From a virus (Duplodnaviria > Heunggongvirae > Uroviricota > Caudoviricetes): 26,649 nucleotides of DNA. The DNA lies in the IMG/VR virus record IMGVR_UViG_2778261572_000013, positions 1 through 26,649 of that record, one strand, 5' to 3'. Below are positions 1 to 25,715 of this stretch, one piece after another. Position 1 is the first letter of the stretch. Every line of letters starts with the position of its first letter. The notes beneath the pieces were generated by a model. It was given only the letters and a program-made list of their open reading frames with translations. It was not told the origin of the DNA and made no database searches. The translations under genes and the position numbers were made by a program.

Positions 1-17
1 TAGATAAGTTTTAGATA

Positions 18-43
18 ACAAAAAACCCATTTATGTAAACGGG
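18..43 (-). terminator. Putative rho-independent terminator downstream of int
   Basis: On the minus strand, hairpin CCCGUUUA-ca-UAAAUGGG (one G-U wobble) followed by U6 (plus-strand A-tract 18-25), immediately 3' of the int stop. Confidence 0.45.
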
Positions 44-49
44 TTAATG

Positions 50-81
50 AAAACAATAAGTTAGAGTAAAAACAATAAGTT
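50..81. repeat. Two direct copies of AAAACAATAAGTT (50-62 and 69-81), candidate integrase arm-type binding sites
   Basis: Exact 13-bp direct repeat with 19-bp period read in the sequence, located between the putative att core and the int 3' end. Confidence 0.4.
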
Positions 82-104
82 GGGTTGGTGGTCAGTGGTG
101 GTTA

Positions 105-1157
105 TTACGGGGTAATGCCAACCGCTGCCGCCACTTTGTCGCCACTTGGCAGCGTTGCCAGAGGATTGAAACGGAGCGCCGTTTCCAGATGATCTGGTGC
201 CAGATGTGCGTAACGCATAGTCATTTTTATATCGTGGTGTCCGAGAATTTTTTGTAAGGCGAGAATGTTTCCACCCGACATCATGAAGTGCGCCGCAAAC
301 GTATGGCGCAGAACGTGTGTGAGTTGACCGCGAGGGAGCACGATAGACGTTTTTTCCATCACGGATAAAAATTGAAAATAGCAGTCTGTAAAGAAATTGA
401 ACCCATCAAGCGCCATGATCTCTTCGTAAAGCTCTTTACTGATAGGGATGCTTCTGTTTTTCTTCCCCTTCGTTCTGACAAAGGTAATTCGGTATTTGGT
501 CACCTGTGAGCGGGTAAGATTTACGGCTTCACGCCAGCGTGCACCTGTGCTTAAGCATATCTTAACTACCAGTGCCAGAATTGGGTCCTGACGTTTGCAA
601 TCAGCCAGCAATTCAACAATCTGCTCATGGGTAAGCCATGCCATCTCTTTTTCTGCGATGGTGAATTTTCGCATGTTCTCCAGTGGGTTCGGATACGACC
701 ATTCGCCCAGACGGGATAGTTCGCTAAAAACACTACTTAGATAGCTTTGCTCCAGGTTAATGGTGACCGGGCTTGCTCCTTTCTTCCATTTCTCGCTGAA
801 GTAGATCTCGCCTGTCAGGCGTTTATCTCGATAGTGGGCAAACATTTTAGAGGTGAGATCGGTTGCAAGAGGATTGCCCAGAGCGTCAACCATCAACAGC
901 AATTTGTCATAGACATGCTGCCCAGCTGTCAGAGATTTACCATGTAGTTTGAACCATAGCTCAACCACGTCTTTCAGTGTTCGACGATCCACTGATTCAC
1001 CCAGCCAGGGCTTTGCTTCGGTTTCTTCCATCGTGTGGCGCTCAAAAGCCAGAGCTTCGCCTTTGGTGGCGAATTGTTTACGCACCCGACGCCCACTACG
1101 TCCGGCGGGGTAACATTCGCAAAGCCATTTTCCTGTGGTGAGTTTTCGTACTGCCAT
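105..1157 (-). CDS. int: Tyrosine recombinase / phage integrase (P2 Int-like)
   Basis: 350-aa ORF. C-terminal HxxR...H...Y catalytic region (LTHVLRHTFAAHFMMSGGNILALQKILGHHDIKMTMRYAHL) is typical of tyrosine integrases; first gene of the prophage as in P2. Confidence 0.93.
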   Translation of the reverse strand: MAVRKLTTGKWLCECYPAGRSGRRVRKQFATKGEALAFERHTMEETEAKPWLGESVDRRTLKDVVELWFKLHGKSLTAGQHVYDKLLLMVDALGNPLATDLTSKMFAHYRDKRLTGEIYFSEKWKKGASPVTINLEQSYLSSVFSELSRLGEWSYPNPLENMRKFTIAEKEMAWLTHEQIVELLADCKRQDPILALVVKICLSTGARWREAVNLTRSQVTKYRITFVRTKGKKNRSIPISKELYEEIMALDGFNFFTDCYFQFLSVMEKTSIVLPRGQLTHVLRHTFAAHFMMSGGNILALQKILGHHDIKMTMRYAHLAPDHLETALRFNPLATLPSGDKVAAAVGITP

Positions 1158-1230: not shown

Positions 1231-3000
1231 TCATACGTCAGGGGTAATCCAGTCGACTAAAGCCTCAATACTTTCGAAATCTGCACAGATATCTGAAAGA
1301 GGTTGTGTATCTGCTTTTGTTTTGAAATCAGCCCATACTGATTCATTTTTTTCTGTAAGACCCAAATGGTTTTCTATCGAACCATTTAGCCAAATCCAAA
1401 TATTTGCATTTCTCAGTTTTGCGGCTAATGATGACAAAAATTCTCTGGCGCCGGGCTTTTGAGACATAATAGCAAATGCTTCAGCTGCGGTAGTGTTACT
1501 ACCCTTTGTAGGCAAACCGGATCCATCGAGAGTGCATTCTCCATTAGCATGCATACTTCTCAAGATTTCTTTTAGTCGTAAAATATCCTCGTCATTATGT
1601 TCTAAGAAGTTGTTCCTTATTGCACCGCGGAACGCAAAATCTAAATCAACAATTGCTTTTGTAGGTATATCCATTGAATTTAGAATTTGCATCGTTTTAG
1701 ATATACTTTCAACGGACCCTGTTTCAATTAGTGCTATTTGCATCTGACCTAATGTTTTATTTTTAACTTTGTTAAAAATAAATGGGAGCAGAGTAGTCTC
1801 TGTTTTACCTTCTGTTAGTATTACATTGTTAGCAAACAAAACTTTTGAAGACTGTGTTAATGAAAATAAATGGGTTGCTTGTGCTGGTCGTTGTTCGATT
1901 ACTTTATTGACTGCTTCTTTTAATGTTAATCTGCAATGAGTGCCACGCTGACTGTTTTTTCTGATTAACACAGTGTCTTTTGCTAAGTCAGAGGTAATCA
2001 TTTGAGATGAATGGGTAGAGAAAATTATTTGATATCCATGATGAGATAGTGTTTTTAGAGATTCTCTAATTTGTTCGATAGCAAATGGGTGAAGATATAA
2101 CTCAGGTTCATCTATTAACAGTAGAGTAGTTGTTTTAATATCATCACCGTTGGTTATATCAGCTAAATGTCTTATTAGAGCCATCTGAATCGAACGCTGT
2201 GTGCCATGACCATAAGAAGAACAGTCACGAGCAATGCCGGGAAATGAATCTTCATATACTTTTACAGTCCCTGATTTAAATATATCCTTGAAGTCAGGGA
2301 GTTCGAAGTGTAGTTTTAAACTTATCCCAGGGAAGAAATCAGCAACTTTACTACTTATTGAATCATCAATATCATTGAGGTCCGATATTCGTTTATTACC
2401 GGTTGCAGTCATTCTTCTATTAACGGCATTTAAATGGCTTAGTATCCTTTGAGTGTGCTTCTCTTCTATTTTGCAACTCAATTCTGCCAGCAACTTACCT
2501 ATTGTAGTTCCTGTTTTTGATTTTGAAGAATCATCCGCTGCATTTTCCATTGCACCTATACGTATTGGGTCTGGAAATAAAGCTTTTATCGCATTCTCAA
2601 TACCCGTTGGTGATGTCCTGAATTCGTTATTTTCTGGGTTTTTAATTAATAATCTGACGTCTTTTGCACTTTGAGCACCAACAGGCTGTTGACGTTTAAA
2701 TATCAATACCCCATCAATAATGTAGGGTGAAATTCTAGTTCTGTTTTCTTCTGTTAAAGCTGACAAAATATCTTCAGTAATACCCTTAACTGTACCTATA
2801 ACTTCTATAGGGTTATCTGGATTAGTATAATCATCAGAGGACAAAAGTTTTTTCTTAAAAAGCCATTCAATAGCATTTAAAATCGTTGACTTACCAGCAT
2901 TGTTGTAACCGATTAAAGGCGTGAATGAAGAAAAATTGATATCAATATCTTTGCAAGATCTAAAGTTTTTTATAGAAATCTTTGAAAGATGATGATTCAT
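1231..3000 (-). CDS. OLD-family ATP-dependent endonuclease (ABC-type ATPase N-terminus plus Toprim C-terminus)
   Basis: 589 aa. Walker A GYNNAGKST, signature-like HGTQRS, Walker B LLLIDEPELYLHP, H-loop FSTHS, then Toprim-like E (ILTEGKTE) and DxD (VDLDFA). Size matches P2 Old (586 aa). AT-rich relative to the phage core. No adjacent helicase gene. Confidence 0.75.
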   Translation of the reverse strand: MNHHLSKISIKNFRSCKDIDINFSSFTPLIGYNNAGKSTILNAIEWLFKKKLLSSDDYTNPDNPIEVIGTVKGITEDILSALTEENRTRISPYIIDGVLIFKRQQPVGAQSAKDVRLLIKNPENNEFRTSPTGIENAIKALFPDPIRIGAMENAADDSSKSKTGTTIGKLLAELSCKIEEKHTQRILSHLNAVNRRMTATGNKRISDLNDIDDSISSKVADFFPGISLKLHFELPDFKDIFKSGTVKVYEDSFPGIARDCSSYGHGTQRSIQMALIRHLADITNGDDIKTTTLLLIDEPELYLHPFAIEQIRESLKTLSHHGYQIIFSTHSSQMITSDLAKDTVLIRKNSQRGTHCRLTLKEAVNKVIEQRPAQATHLFSLTQSSKVLFANNVILTEGKTETTLLPFIFNKVKNKTLGQMQIALIETGSVESISKTMQILNSMDIPTKAIVDLDFAFRGAIRNNFLEHNDEDILRLKEILRSMHANGECTLDGSGLPTKGSNTTAAEAFAIMSQKPGAREFLSSLAAKLRNANIWIWLNGSIENHLGLTEKNESVWADFKTKADTQPLSDICADFESIEALVDWITPDV

Positions 3001-3982: not shown

Positions 3983-4069
3983 ATTCTTTATGTGAACCTA
4001 TTCTCCGTTTTGTGATGTTTTGTCACGATTAATACCGGCTCACCACAAGCCAATAGGAGATGTTGCATC
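3983..4069. promoter_or_regulatory. Divergent promoter/operator region of the immunity switch
   Basis: Lies between the leftward repressor gene and the rightward early operon; contains the direct repeat GTTTTGTGA/GTTTTGTCA and an RBS (GGAG) for the 4070 ORF. Confidence 0.5.
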
Positions 4070-4291
4070 ATGACCCCTAACATTTCAATAACTCTGAATA
4101 CGCCACACGTCACAATTGAGCGTTATAGCGAACTTACTGGTCTTTCTATCGACACCATCAACGATATGCTGGCTGATGGTCGTATCCCTCGCCATCGCCT
4201 TCGGAAAGACAAGAAAAGAGAAAAGGTAATGATCAACCTTGCTGCTCTTACCGTTGATGCACTTACTGATTGCAATGTTGTATTCAACTAG
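4070..4291 (+). CDS. Small DNA-binding protein, Cox/Apl-like (excisionase/switch regulator) candidate
   Basis: 73-aa basic protein, first gene of the rightward early operon, with an HTH-like segment ([25 protein letters not shown]). Assigned by position and size only. Confidence 0.5.
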
Positions 4292-14547: not shown

Positions 14548-15236
14548 AAAATCTCCACAATATTGCTGGTATTGGCGGACTCGCCCTGCAGTGGTTCGTT
14601 AAACAGTGCGTGCATTGTTGCCCAGGCCAGATCGGCATGGCTGGCTTCTTCGCTGCGGCTGGCTTCATAGGTCGGGCGGTTGCCGCTGGCGGTGGTGGCG
14701 CGACGGATTGCCATGAATGACTGCGCAATGTCGGTGTGCCCGGCGTCAAACTCAAGACGGCGGTGGCTGATAATGTCGTAGGCCTTGAGTACCAGGGCGT
14801 TTTTAACGTTGGGGTTGTAGACAAACTCCCGGACGGCAGGAAAAAACGCTTTCACGTTCTCGTAAACCCCGTGACCAACGCCGGTTGAGTCGATGCCGAT
14901 ATAGGTCACGTTGTACTGTTCGGTCAGTTTTTTGATGGCGTCAGCTTGGGCGCGAAAGTCCATTCCGCGCCACTGGTGACGCTCAAGAATGCGGAACTTA
15001 CCGCCTGGCACGGCTGGCGGTGCCACCACCACGCATCCGGCGCTGTCGCCGTTCTGCGTACCTTTTGCCGGGTCATAACCGATCCACACTTCGCGCCAGC
15101 CAAACGGGCGCAGGGCCAGTGCATGAAAGTCGGTCCAGACTTCCCAGCTGTCGGTACAAATACCGCGCATTGTTTCACTGCCCCCATCACCGCAACCATA
15201 AGGCTCCAGTAAGTTTTTTCTAACGGAGCACGGCTC
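14544..15236 (-). pseudogene. P: Terminase large subunit (gpP) 3' fragment; N-terminal ATPase domain missing
   Basis: Open frame ends where the O gene starts. The segment from about WIGYDPAKG...DSAGCVVVAPP onward resembles a terminase nuclease domain. No Walker A region is present, and the frame's first 47 codons are antisense to the O start. Confidence 0.6.
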
Positions 15237-17894: not shown

Positions 17895-18125
17895 ATGAAG
17901 TTTGTTGCGCCAGAACAGGCACCGGAACAGGCGGAAATCATCAGAAATACGCCGTTCTGGCCTGATGTGGACCTGTCGGAGTTTCGCAGCGTGATGCGCA
18001 CTGACGGCACGGTGACGCAGCCGCGTTTAAAGCAGGTTGCCCTGTCTGGACCGACGGCATTGGTAATACGTCGGGCGTCATTCCCGGCAAAACCATTACG
18101 GAGCGACAGGCAGCAGAAGGGCTGA
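17895..18125 (+). CDS. L: Head completion protein gpL-like, probably 3'-truncated
   Basis: ATG 17895 with AGGAGAAAG RBS; only 76 codons (P2 L is about 169 aa); frame is lost where lysozyme-like sequence begins in another frame. Confidence 0.4.
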   Translation: MKFVAPEQAPEQAEIIRNTPFWPDVDLSEFRSVMRTDGTVTQPRLKQVALSGPTALVIRRASFPAKPLRSDRQQKG

Positions 18126-18397
18126 TCTCCAACGTGCTGCGTGTGGAGCGGGCGCTGGAAAGGTGTGTGAAGCAACAGCCGCCGCAGAAGGTGTATGACG
18201 CTGCGGTGTCGTTTGCCTTCAACGTGGGTACGGGCAATGCCTGCAGTTCCACGCTGGTGAAATTGCTCAATCAGCGGCGCTGGGCGGATGCGTGCCGACA
18301 GTTGCCGCGCTGGGTGTATGTAAAAGGTGTGTTTAATCAGGGGCTGGATAACCGCCGTGCACGGGAGATGGCCTGGTGCTTACAGGGAGCAAACTGA
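18005..18397 (+). pseudogene. K: Phage lysozyme (gpK-like, GH24 family) lacking the N-terminal catalytic region
   Basis: Frame-2 open stretch encodes CPVWTDGIGNTSG...GKTITERQAAEGL...SFAFNVGTGN...RRW..., matching the middle and C-terminus of lambda/P21-type lysozymes; no in-frame N-terminus with the catalytic Glu upstream. Confidence 0.55.
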
Positions 18398-18398
18398 A

Positions 18399-18836
18399 AT
18401 GAAAAAGAAAGTAATCAGCGGACTGTTTCTGATGTTATGGATGGCGCTGTTAATCGCAGCAATGGTGTATCCGCAGGGGATTTTTCCGGTACTGGCAGCG
18501 TCCGGTGTCTGGGTAGCCTGTCTGCTGACATGGGGGGCAATTCCGGTAGCACTGGTTGCGTTAATTAAGAACGGCCCGCTCTGGCAGGAGTTGAGGGCAT
18601 CTTTGCTGAAGAGCATTACCCGAAAAGAAAACGTATTTATCAGCTGGATGATGCGATTGCTGATTGTCGTAAGTCTCGCCTGGACGGGGTGGGCTATTAC
18701 CCTGGTCTTTTATCTGCTGACCGTTATCGCCACCATTTTTCACTGGCCGCCATCCGTTACTGACGTTATGCCGCTGACCGAAGTGCTGGAATGGCGGTAT
18801 AAAGCGATTCAGAGAAGCGGGGACAACGATGAGTGA
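18399..18836 (+). CDS. Small membrane protein, LysA-like candidate
   Basis: 145 aa with four hydrophobic segments, RBS AGGGAG, immediately after the lysozyme remnant as P2 lysA follows K. Its stop overlaps the T start. Confidence 0.4.
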   Translation: MKKKVISGLFLMLWMALLIAAMVYPQGIFPVLAASGVWVACLLTWGAIPVALVALIKNGPLWQELRASLLKSITRKENVFISWMMRLLIVVSLAWTGWAITLVFYLLTVIATIFHWPPSVTDVMPLTEVLEWRYKAIQRSGDNDE

Positions 18837-23575: not shown

Positions 23576-23794
23576 ATGATGATTTGCCCACTGTGTGGAA
23601 GTGCCGCCCATACTCGCAGCAGTTTTCAGGTATCTTCATTGACCAAAGAGCGTTACAACCAGTGCCAGAACATTAACTGCAGCCATACTTTTGTTACCCA
23701 TGAAACTTTTGTTCGTTCGATTGCAACGCCAAAAGAGTCAAATCCGGTTCAGCCGCATCCAATGAAATCAGGACAGGTGGCGCTCTCTCTTTGA
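23576..23794 (+). CDS. ogr: Ogr-type zinc-finger late-gene transcription activator
   Basis: MMICPLCGSAAHTRSS...KERYNQCQNINCSHTF... closely parallels P2 Ogr (MFHCPLCQHAAH...KERYHQCQNVNCSATF); last prophage gene before attR, as in P2. Confidence 0.9.
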   Translation: MMICPLCGSAAHTRSSFQVSSLTKERYNQCQNINCSHTFVTHETFVRSIATPKESNPVQPHPMKSGQVALSL

Positions 23795-23816
23795 CGCTGC
23801 CGCCATTTTGTCGCCA
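23795..23816. repeat. 22-bp repeat CGCTGCCGCCA(T)TTTGTCGCCA, also present at 123-144 (one mismatch)
   Basis: Direct repeat read at both prophage ends: the left copy inside the int 3' end, the right copy immediately after the ogr stop. Candidate arm-type Int site or alternative att core. Confidence 0.5.
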
Positions 23817-23870
23817 TCGTTAAAAAACAGTGTTTCTAACATCATGATTTTAAACAGCTTAAATTTCAGG

Positions 23871-23917
23871 CAACAAAAAACCCATCAACCTTGAACCGAA
23901 ATGGCGGGGTTGATGGG
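23871..23917 (-). terminator. Rho-independent terminator of ybjL, containing the putative attR core
   Basis: Perfect 10-bp stem CCCATCAACC/GGTTGATGGG followed on the minus strand by U-tract; the 14-mer AACAAAAAACCCAT (23872-23885) is identical to 17-30 at the left end. Confidence 0.6.
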
Positions 23918-24029
23918 CTCCACAAAATGGGGACATCAAAGAAAAGCAGTGGCACTAATTAAGACTGATGCCCTGCGGAAAAGTTCTGCGGTTGTGCAAA
24001 AAAATTTCATTTTCAGGGCAACTTCAGTT

Positions 24030-25715
24030 TTATCCTAATCCTGGCCATACCATGACGATGATTGTCCCTGCCAGCGTCAGCAGGACGTTGGCGATTGCAT
24101 AGGTGCCCGCATAGCCCAGCGCCGGGATGTTACTGCGAGCTGTATCACTGATGATCTCCATTGCCGGCGCGCAGGTACGTGCGCCCATCATTGCGCCGAA
24201 CAACAGTGCGCGGTTCATTCGCAATACATAAGCACCGAACAAGAAACAGATAACCACGGGCACCAGACTGACAATCAATCCGGCAATCAACATCTGACCG
24301 CCAATCGCGCCCAGGCCGTTATTAATACCGCTACCGGCGCTCAGACCAACGCCTGCTATAAACACCATCAAGCCGAACTCTTTCACCATGCTTAATGCAC
24401 CTTGCGGAATGTAACCGAAGGTCGGGTGGTTAGCACGCATAAAGCCCAGCATAATTCCGGCGAATAACAACCCGGCAGCGTTCCCCATGCCGAAACTGAA
24501 TGTGCTGAACTGGAAGGTGATCATCCCGATCATCAGCCCAATAACAAAGAAGGCGCAAAATGCCAGCAGGTCAGTGACCTGGCTGTGAATCGAGATAAAG
24601 CCGATGCGATCGGCGATGGTTTTTACGCGACGGGCATCACCGCTGACTTGTAAAACGTCACCTTTGTTAAGCACGACGTTGTCATCTATCGGCATCTCAA
24701 TCTGGCTACGAATGACGCGGTTAAGGAAGCAACCGTGATCGGTCAACTTCAGTTGTGCGAGACGTTTACCTACAGCGTTATGGTTTTTAACGACCACTTC
24801 TTCAGTGACGATACGCATGTCGAGAAGGTCACGATCGAAAACTTCTTTACCGTTACGGAAGCTGGGATCGAGTCGGGCATGGGCGTCGGGATAGCCTACC
24901 AACGCTATTTCATCGCCCATTTGTAGCACGGCATCACCGTCTGGATTTGCCAGAATCCCGTTACGTCGAATACGTTCAATGTAGCAGCCGGTTTGTCGAT
25001 AAATACCCAGTTCACGCAGATTTTTGCCGTCGGTCCAGGCCACCAGCTCCGGGCCGACGCGATAGGCGCGGATCACCGGTAAATAAACCTTACGGTTGGC
25101 ATCAGTGTCCAGGCCACGTTCGCGGGCGATTTGCTGGGCGCTGGTCTGTAAGTCCTGATGCTGCAATTTCGGCAAGTAACGCGCACCAACAATCAAACTC
25201 ACCAGACCGATTAAATAGGTTAAGGCATACCCGAGGCTCAGATTATCCAGTGCCAGTGAGAGCTGCCTGCTTTCCATGCCGGAATGACGCAGTGTATCGC
25301 CAGCACCGACCAGAACCGGTGTCGACGTCATAGAGCCTGCTAACATACCGGCCGTCAGGCCAATATCCCAGCCAAACAGCTTACCTAACCCTAAGGCGAT
25401 CACCAGCGCACTGCCAACCATCACCAGTGCTAACATTAGGTAATTTTTCCCATCGCGAAAAAAAATGGAAAAAAAGTTCGGTCCGGCTTCGACCCCGACG
25501 CAGAAAATAAACAGCATAAAGCCAAGATTAAGCGCATCGGTGTTAATGCTGAAATGTTGTTGGCCTAATAACAGCGATACGACTAAAACGCCAATGGAAT
25601 TACCCAGTTGGATCGAACCAAGTCGTAACTTTCCGAGACATAGCCCAAGCGCGAGGACCACAAATAATAACAGAATGTAATTCCCATTTAACAATTCGGC
25701 GACGTTTATATTCAC
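24030..25715 (-). CDS. ybjL: Putative transport protein YbjL (AspT/YidE/YbjL family)
   Basis: 561-aa polytopic membrane protein recognised as E. coli-type YbjL from its sequence ([20 protein letters not shown]...), with TM blocks flanking a central soluble domain. Confidence 0.85.

Follow-up and report, generated by a model that had tools for sequence, protein, structure and literature searches.

A 14-bp core at the 3′ end of the small RNA gene rybB bounds a very probable 186-type P2-like prophage

The stretch of DNA analyzed here (26,649 nucleotides; hereafter the window) carries near its left end int, the gene for a tyrosine integrase, and at its right end the host genes rybB and ybjL (Table 1). 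The int product shares 56% identity with the Int protein of phage 186 over 334 amino acids, the N-terminal region included, with which integrases of this family recognise their arm sites. Next to int lies a defence-type cargo gene for an OLD-family nuclease. A gene in the position of cox or apl, a candidate for the excisionase (RDF) gene, adjoins cI; its product gave no Pfam match and resembles 186 Apl weakly and in the HTH region only. The last prophage gene encodes an ogr/B-type late activator. Both int on the minus strand and ogr on the plus strand lie at the positions given in an earlier note, which had been made from the sequence alone. The gene order attL-int-cI-cox/apl ... D-ogr-attR is present, and approximately 10 kb with lysis and tail genes, together with a portion of the terminase gene, are missing; the deleted prophage is probably defective. 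The deletion junctions in the interval 17950–18800 were contiguous in none of the best-matching complete E. coli genomes listed.

Table 1. Coordinates of genes, attachment-site elements and host sequences in the window.
Feature	Position	Strand	Remark
Host DNA, left flank of attB	1–16		Spacer from rcdA stop codon to core; identical 16 bases in empty sites
attL copy of the 14-bp core AACAAAAAACCCAT	17–30	+	Crossover inside
int intrinsic terminator	17–45	-	Stem-loop 45–24 plus U-tract from the core
IHF-like site AAACAATAAGTTA, P′ arm	51–63	+	12/13 to WATCAANNNNTTR; position partly conserved in relatives
IHF-like site AAACAATAAGTTG, P′ arm	70–82	+	12/13 to consensus WATCAANNNNTTR
int, tyrosine integrase	105–1157	-	Pfam Int_N and Phage_integrase
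P′ arm, tandem 11-bp 186-type Int arm sites (predicted) TGCCGCCACTT, TGTCGCCACTT	126–147	+	Also encode the Int C-terminal tail
OLD-family nuclease, defence-type cargo gene	1231–3000		Adjoins int
Cox/Apl-position gene, candidate excisionase/RDF	4070–4291	+	Adjoins cI
ogr/B-type late activator, last prophage gene	23576–23794	+	Pfam Ogr_Delta, E 5e-22
P arm, tandem arm-type sites (predicted) TGCCGCCATTT, TGTCGCCATCG	23798–23819	+	Motif match
IHF-like site AATCATGATGTTA, P arm	23837–23849	-	12/13 to consensus WATCAANNNNTTR
attR copy of the 14-bp core, last 14 nucleotides of rybB	23872–23885	+	
rybB sRNA gene, full length	23872–23950	-	Rfam RF00110, 105.3 bits, E 1e-22, model 1–79/79
ybjL (aspartate:alanine antiporter), host gene	24030–25715	-	Same strand as rybB, 80 nucleotides upstream

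The 14-mer AACAAAAAACCCAT occurs exactly twice in the whole window (chance expectation 0.01), with both copies at precisely the places that the earlier note had assigned to them. The first base of the window is the first base 3′ of the rcdA stop codon (rcdA ends at position 3000 of locus L001, and window base 1 is L001 position 3001). Alignment to the empty sites of E. coli strains 7A and TA8571 revealed window positions 1–30 joined straight to 23886 onward, in the order rcdA stop codon, TAGATAAGTTTTAGAT, AACAAAAAACCCAT, CAACCTTGAACC. A contiguous attP is present in Klebsiella phage KP12 (OM835953), in which the side of the window ending at 23885 is joined to 31 onward; the order there is ogr, the ogr-side copy of a 22-mer described below, ∼55 nucleotides, AAATTTCAGAC AACAAAAAACCCAT TTATGTAAACGGG, the int-side 22-mer and int. 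In an alignment of attL, attR, the 7A/TA8571 attB and the KP12 attP, the 14-mer alone is common to all four. To the left of position 17 the sequence is host-type at attL and phage-type at attR, and to the right of position 30 it is phage-type at attL and host-type at attR. Because the flank types swap at 17 and 30, both strand exchanges fall within the 14-mer. The earlier note had named the 14-mer as a candidate att core at the prophage boundaries and had suggested alignment to an unoccupied rcdA–ybjL region as a check; that alignment places the junctions at the 14-mer, and the boundary claim is thereby upheld. Host DNA comprises positions 1–16 at the left end and everything from 23886 on at the right end, which settles the border between host and phage in the window.

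Positions 17–23885 very probably constitute a 186-type P2-like prophage (Peduoviridae) integrated at the 3′ end of rybB, of a kind that is filed with Fels-2 or Felsduovirus in the literature cited (PMC10121019, PMC4048246). A 120-bp probe for the empty junction was covered over at least 80% of its length in 4227 of 5426 complete E. coli genomes; for a 120-bp probe spanning rcdA, the core and phage DNA (attL), the same coverage was obtained in 1122 of the 5426. About a fifth (∼21%) of complete E. coli genomes thus have a prophage junction at the rybB site. Among the thousands of non-lysogens listed, the match to the attL probe ends at probe base 72–73, which corresponds to window positions 29–30. 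No clear inverted core-type Int sites flanking a 6–8 bp overlap were found around the 14-mer, either by eye or in an inverted-repeat search. The dyad CATAAAT...ATTTATG seen in relatives was rejected as a core dyad; its halves lie 19 bp apart, too far for a canonical core.

The right-hand copy of the core belongs to a full-length rybB gene, whose score exceeds the RF00110 gathering score of 40 bits (Table 1). A RybB match of equal score was obtained at the empty site, its 3′ end lying at the first base of the 14-mer. Read on the minus strand, the 14-mer is exactly the last 14 nucleotides of rybB, consisting of AUGGG, which closes the terminator stem, and UUUUUUGUU. The right-hand hairpin has a 12-bp stem, with a folding energy of -24 kcal/mol for the whole RNA, and together with its U-tract corresponds to positions 32–79 of the full-length RybB match. 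A simple terminator scan misses this terminator because its loop exceeds the 8-nucleotide limit of the scan; folding and Rfam confirm it instead. The predicted RybB fold is identical in lysogen and non-lysogen. Past the U-tract, the sequence reads AUCUAA at the empty site and GCCUGA in the lysogen. The rybB sequence is unchanged by the insertion and is left intact at attR, and the integration target is the 3′ end of rybB, between rcdA and ybjL. In general, rybB is known as a gene with a sigma-E-dependent promoter and expression.

At the left end, the terminator scan and folding agree on an int terminator that uses the T-tract of the core, as the earlier note had claimed. It consists of AACCCGTTTACATAAATGGGTT followed by TTTTGTT, with 9 pairs, a folding energy of -9 kcal/mol and a z-score of -2.6. 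In the RNA, AACCCGUUUACAUAAAUGGGUU and then UUUUGUU stand directly after the int stop codon. The hairpin is kept in relatives of other genera. Of the proposal that terminators occupy both ends, the hairpins themselves stand; the assignment of the right-hand one to ybjL does not, since Rfam identifies it as the rybB terminator.

Outside the core, the 22-mer CGCTGCCGCCAYTTTGTCGCCA is present in exactly two copies in the whole window (0 expected), at 123–144 in the 3′ end of int and at 23795–23816 just past ogr, both as stated earlier. It is composed of two tandem 11-bp units of the form TGYCGCCAYTT. The distance to the core is ∼55 bp for the pair of units on its left and ∼95 bp for the pair on its right. 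For attP arms of the 186 type, the available part of PMC3448106 gives the consensus tgccGCCActt, and for those of the P2 type tgTGGaCa. The annotated 186 record (NC_001317) has arm sites of consensus YAYCGCCAYTY, labelled 'predicted' there, three of them to the left and two to the right of attP, in tandem and at 11-bp spacing. The pattern YRYCGCCAYTY has four matches in the window compared with 0.56 expected, and three of the four are in the att arms. The consensus is matched at 126–136, 137–147 and 23798–23808, and 23809–23819 matches at 9 of 11 positions. The P2-type motif tgTGGaCa had no match in either arm with up to one mismatch. By homology we infer that the 22-mers are paired arm-type Int sites, one pair in each arm; this agrees with one of the two roles that the earlier note had offered for them, and binding is predicted.

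Between the arm sites and the core, AAAACAATAAGTT is duplicated at 50–62 and 69–81, 19 bp from start to start, in keeping with the duplication that had been reported at 50–81. Each copy overlaps an IHF-like site (Table 1). In most relatives the position equivalent to 70–82 reads AATCAATAAGTTA, a perfect IHF consensus. In the P arm, TAAnnnnnTGATT is the sole conserved block in a spacer that is otherwise variable across genera, and some relatives match the IHF consensus perfectly at its position. The IHF footprints of phage 186 lie on both sides of its core, at the same relative positions as 70–82 and 23837–23849. With one mismatch allowed, the IHF consensus had 35 matches in the window compared with 28 expected and is not enriched; because matches of this quality occur at chance level, the IHF assignments are based on position and cross-genus conservation. 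It is plausible that the AAACAATAAGTT repeats are IHF sites.

We scanned species-representative genomes for the 19-mer TGCCGCCANTTTGTCGCCA and found at least 120 loci in Enterobacterales, Vibrio, Shewanella, Photobacterium and others; a few matches in unrelated high-GC genomes are apparently fortuitous. Sixteen attR loci from other Enterobacterales species, among the matches listed, have the order arm pair, ∼55 nucleotides, ..CAGGCAAYAAAAAACCCAT, RybB. They come from Siccibacter, Kluyvera, Phytobacter, Serratia, Silvania, Scandinavium, Enterobacter, an Escherichia clade and others. RybB is full length in 15 of the 16, and in the remaining one (L102) it is cut by the end of the locus. The attL side was seen at 16 further loci among the matches listed. 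As the 19-mer was the search pattern, its invariance across genera is given by construction; what we regard as informative in this set of sequences is that its distance to the core stays constant and that it accompanies other cores in other taxa.

Several other readings of these elements have to be weighed. The 22-mer is the longer of the direct repeats near both ends, and the earlier note had considered that it might itself be the core. If CGCTGCCGCCAYTTTGTCGCCA were the site of crossover, host DNA would start at approximately 122 on the left and 23817 on the right. The empty sites of 7A and TA8571, however, hold no copy of it and are colinear with window 1–30 joined to 23886 onward, and in the KP12 attP both copies are found, ∼55 and ∼95 bp from a single 14-mer. 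The two copies moreover differ at one base, and the 19-mer is found next to different cores in Vibrio, Shewanella, Pantoea, Providencia and others. As the core, the 22-mer is refuted by the sequences of the empty sites and of attP, and the probability left to such a crossover is vanishingly small. It also seems very improbable that the P′-arm copy has been kept only since it encodes the Int C-terminus and not as a binding site. Positions 108–147 do encode the last Int residues in the window, but the second copy, past ogr, is non-coding. An extra gene of 270 nucleotides stands between the block and int in E. coli HS and CFT073, and the 3′ end of int is different there, yet the block up to ...TTTGTCGCCACTTG is kept. 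Several other genera diverge right after the motif, and the motif has been described independently for attP arms of the 186 type (available part of PMC3448106; 186 record). As for the duplicated AAACAATAAGTT units, they form direct repeats in the interval from the core to the P′ arm sites, the place of the Apl operators in 186, and might on that account be Cox/Apl-like excisionase operators instead of IHF sites. We consider this unlikely: the spacing is 19 bp, as against the 10–11 bp typical of RDF operators (PMC7498355), there are two copies only, the cI-cox switch region lacks the motif and the second unit is a perfect IHF consensus in relatives. A k-mer comparison detected no repeat family common to 31–126 and the switch region 3983–4069, and a search for repeats spaced 10–11 bp apart yielded no convincing Cox/Apl operators in the att arms, the yield being a GGTGGT pair at 87/97 and scattered 6-mers.

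At the core itself, the target hairpin could be read as the ybjL terminator, with rybB incidental. The ybjL gene is on the same strand, 80 nucleotides upstream, and the terminator scan detected no further terminator-like site between the ybjL stop codon and the hairpin. Against this, the hairpin belongs to a full-length RybB of 105 bits, the end of the core coincides exactly with the RybB 3′ end, the association with RybB is kept in 16 other species, and rybB is named as the target in PMC10121019 and PMC4048246; we judge the ybjL reading to be quite unlikely. Because no other terminator-like site intervenes, ybjL read-through may also end at the rybB terminator. With rybB as the target, a further question concerns the length of the functional core. 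It could comprise ∼27 bp (ATAAATTTCAGGCAACAAAAAACCCAT), with an Int core-type site on the left side of the 14-mer; this would refine the 14-bp result without contradicting it, and the 14-mer would then be no more than the stretch of perfect match in hosts whose attB is of the K-12 type. In E. coli A4 the empty attB consists of ATAAATTTCAGGC and the 14-mer, is identical to the phage side of the window attR over 26 bp and agrees with the KP12 attP at 26 of 27 positions. In addition, the K-12-type flank still matches at 8 of the 13 bases preceding the 14-mer, Klebsiella lysogens have 19–20 bp in common, and strain Nissle 1917 has tandem copies of the 27-bp unit. On the other side, the sequence left of position 17 is host-type at attL and phage-type at attR, which places both exchanges within the 14-mer, and Silvania lysogens have just 14 consecutive bp in common. 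From these sequences we regard the chances for and against a 27-bp functional core as evenly balanced. Serratia relatives have ...AAAAAACCCG, matching the Serratia rybB terminator. Probably the functional site reaches beyond the 14-mer on the left, with the 14-mer as the minimal common block that contains the crossover in this host.

Two forms of the site occur in E. coli. The ancestral-looking allele, ATAAATTTCAGGC followed by the core, is found in strains A4 and Nissle, matches attP over 26–27 bp and has related flanks in other genera. The K-12-type allele, ATAAGTTTTAGAT followed by the core, matches attP perfectly over 14 bp only. Should an Int core-type site lie in the 13 bp on the left, the K-12-type allele might be partly phage-resistant; if it is, the tandem repeats of core, rybB and ybjL fragments in Nissle 1917 could be scars of aberrant Int recombination. 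The whole of this idea, two attB alleles at rybB of which one is a partly resistant variant and the Nissle repeats as recombination scars, is tentative and unlikely to hold.

We propose that the tyrosine integrase would carry out site-specific recombination between the phage attP and the 3′ end of rybB. The attP copy of AACAAAAAACCCAT is identical to the last 14 nucleotides of rybB, and exchange inside it would leave one copy at each end of the prophage. At attR the core copy completes an unchanged rybB, and at attL it supplies the U-tract and the stem end of the phage's own int terminator. The four arm units would presumably be bound by the N-terminal domain of Int, and the IHF-like sites between the arms and the core would bend the DNA into an intasome, as in 186 and P2. 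The exact cleavage positions would lie inside the 14-mer.

The rybB site, the core and the class of arm site have already been published, and the feature is an ordinary one with nothing new in principle. For the window, the annotation of the target is corrected from a ybjL terminator to the 3′ end of rybB, the gene for a sigma-E sRNA. The use of the 3′ end of a structured-RNA gene, followed by restoration of the gene, is classical for tRNA and tmRNA targets. Here rybB survives integration because the phage carries a replacement 3′ end, and in this the prophage is a textbook example of a temperate phage that targets a structured-RNA gene at its 3′ end and brings its own copy of that end.

Prophages at the same locus have been described before. 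According to the available part of PMC3448106 (Nilsson, Karlsson and Haggard-Ljungquist 2011), PhiECO1 occupies 916812–948276 in E. coli HS, and the site is common to PhiECO2, PhiECO3 (CFT073) and PhiSEN1; rybB is not named in that part of the text. In HS the two PhiECO1 coordinates fall, between rcdA and ybjL, on the initial A of the 14-mer at attL and at attR, respectively. In so far as that part of the source covers them, PhiECO1–3 and PhiSEN1 agree with the window in locus (rcdA–ybjL), 14-mer, 186-type CI, Int and class of arm site. HS and CFT073 differ from it by the extra gene between the P′ arm sites and int and in the Int C-terminus. Felsduovirus prophages are reported at E. coli defence hotspot #29 'within the small RNA rybB' (Hochhauser et al. 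2023, PMC10121019), and the Klebsiella Fels-2-like island Kpn38RybB lies 'precisely within' rybB (Hudson et al. 2014, PMC4048246); both share the target gene and the kind of phage with the window. Defence cargo adjoining int is described for Felsduovirus prophages (PMC10121019, PMC4048246), and the window has its OLD-family nuclease in that place. The window prophage differs from those at hotspot #29 and from Kpn38RybB in its losses, ∼10 kb with lysis and tail genes plus a portion of the terminase gene.

The attP of P2 follows the same logic, with direct-repeat Int arm sites in both arms, IHF and Cox sites, and a location between ogr and int (available part of PMC3448106). P2 differs in its arm motif, tgTGGaCa, which is absent from the window arms, and in using sites outside RNA genes. 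The attP of phage 186 runs from B/ogr through arm sites, IHF, core, IHF and (Apl sites) to arm sites and int, an order that the window repeats in its genes, its core and its predicted arm and IHF-like sites. Both have tandem 11-bp arm units with CGCCAYTY, and in both a structured RNA gene provides the core with its 3′ part. The target of 186 is a tRNA-Ile gene (ileY) with 36 bp of common sequence, whereas that of the window prophage is rybB with a 14-mer. In 186 the terminator of the lysogenic operon lies across the core from int, whereas the int terminator in the window is at attL beside int; 186 has five mapped Apl operators, whereas none was found in the window. The Klebsiella phages 4LV2017 (KY271398) and KP12 (OM835953) have int, ogr and att arms 96–98% identical to those of the window. 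The 4LV2017 GenBank record annotates attL and attR over CAGGCAACAAAAAACCCAT, and the common core in Klebsiella is 19–20 bp because the host flank also reads CAGGC. The genomes of 4LV2017 and KP12 are complete, at 33–35 kb.

Comparison of strains A4 and 7A revealed two alleles of the empty attachment site at rybB in E. coli. In the A4- or Nissle-type allele, the 13 bases preceding the 14-bp core (ATAAATTTCAGGC) are identical to the phage attP flank, whereas the K-12-type allele carries ATAAGTTTTAGAT at these positions; the HS flank, ATAAATTTTAGAT, is intermediate between the two. The locus of Nissle 1917 (CP007799) contains three full-length copies of rybB in tandem, in a repeat unit of ~510 bp in which every copy is accompanied by a 3' fragment of ybjL. 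The 14-mer occurs four times in this locus, one copy lying immediately after rcdA in a core-TTA-core arrangement, and the repeat junction within ybjL (...ATAAACACCAT) is similar to the core. Aberrant Int recombination could have left the tandem repeats as scars; the repeats could also be an artefact of assembly.

Coordinates of features in the window and in the comparison loci.
Feature	Sequence	Position	Strand
Degenerate form of a candidate third arm-type unit	window	94-104	
7-bp inverted repeat, CGCTGCC/GGCAGCG	window	123-129 and 148-154	
OLD-family ATPase/TOPRIM nuclease, 589 aa	window	1231-3000	minus
First deletion junction, versus 4LV2017	window	15149-15152	
Second deletion junction, versus 4LV2017	window	18043-18046	
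Third deletion junction, versus 4LV2017	window	18712-18731	
Empty site	A4 (L134)	224-304	
Empty site	7A (L002)	1480-1560	
rybB tandem repeats	Nissle 1917 (L004)	980-2110	
Hypothetical gene	HS (L009)	1147-1416	
Hypothetical gene	CFT073 (L011)	1005-1274	

Outside E. coli, the core of the Serratia relatives (L044, L051 and L095) takes the form ...CAGGCAACAAAAAACCCG, a variant that matches the Serratia rybB terminator with the compensatory change in its stem; the P' arm of these relatives, from the core to the arm sites, is quite different. Among the matches listed (L014-L132), an identical 19-bp double arm site is found in many other Gammaproteobacteria, including Vibrio, Shewanella, Photobacterium, Pantoea, Erwinia, Providencia, Photorhabdus and Brenneria. 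In these taxa another A-rich tract and a hairpin (e.g. caacaaaaaagccaccc...ggtggc) often follow the site within 10-30 nt, which suggests integrases of the 186 type that target other terminators or RNA genes.

In the related prophages of HS and CFT073 the 3' end of int differs from that in the window, and an inserted hypothetical gene of 270 nt separates int from the P' arm sites. Upstream of this gene the arm-site block has been retained, along with an apparent remnant of the sequence that encodes the C-terminus of Int.

The prophage in the window, ~23.9 kb in size, is almost certainly defective. Comparison with the 33.5-kb Klebsiella phage 4LV2017 revealed three internal deletions. The first removed the P-O promoter region and the 5' portion of gpP, the terminase gene; the second begins in the 3' end of L, runs through X and the holin gene, and takes in part of the lysozyme gene; the third, of ~8 kb, extends from lysB to E and covers the genes for tail completion, baseplate, fibre, sheath and tube. 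The junctions within 17950-18800 were not contiguous in any of the complete E. coli genomes that matched best.

The two halves of a 7-bp inverted repeat lie on either side of the two P' arm units. In a cross-genus alignment, most relatives carry AGTGGCGAT at a position where the window has a degenerate version, AGTGGTGGT; read as its reverse complement, AATCGCCACTC, the sequence of these relatives would form a third arm-type unit in inverted orientation. The left arm of phage 186 likewise includes an inverted unit (gaaagtggcggta). For Felsduovirus prophages at the rybB site, variable defence cargo has been reported between int and cI (PMC10121019); the window prophage has its OLD-family nuclease gene at this position.
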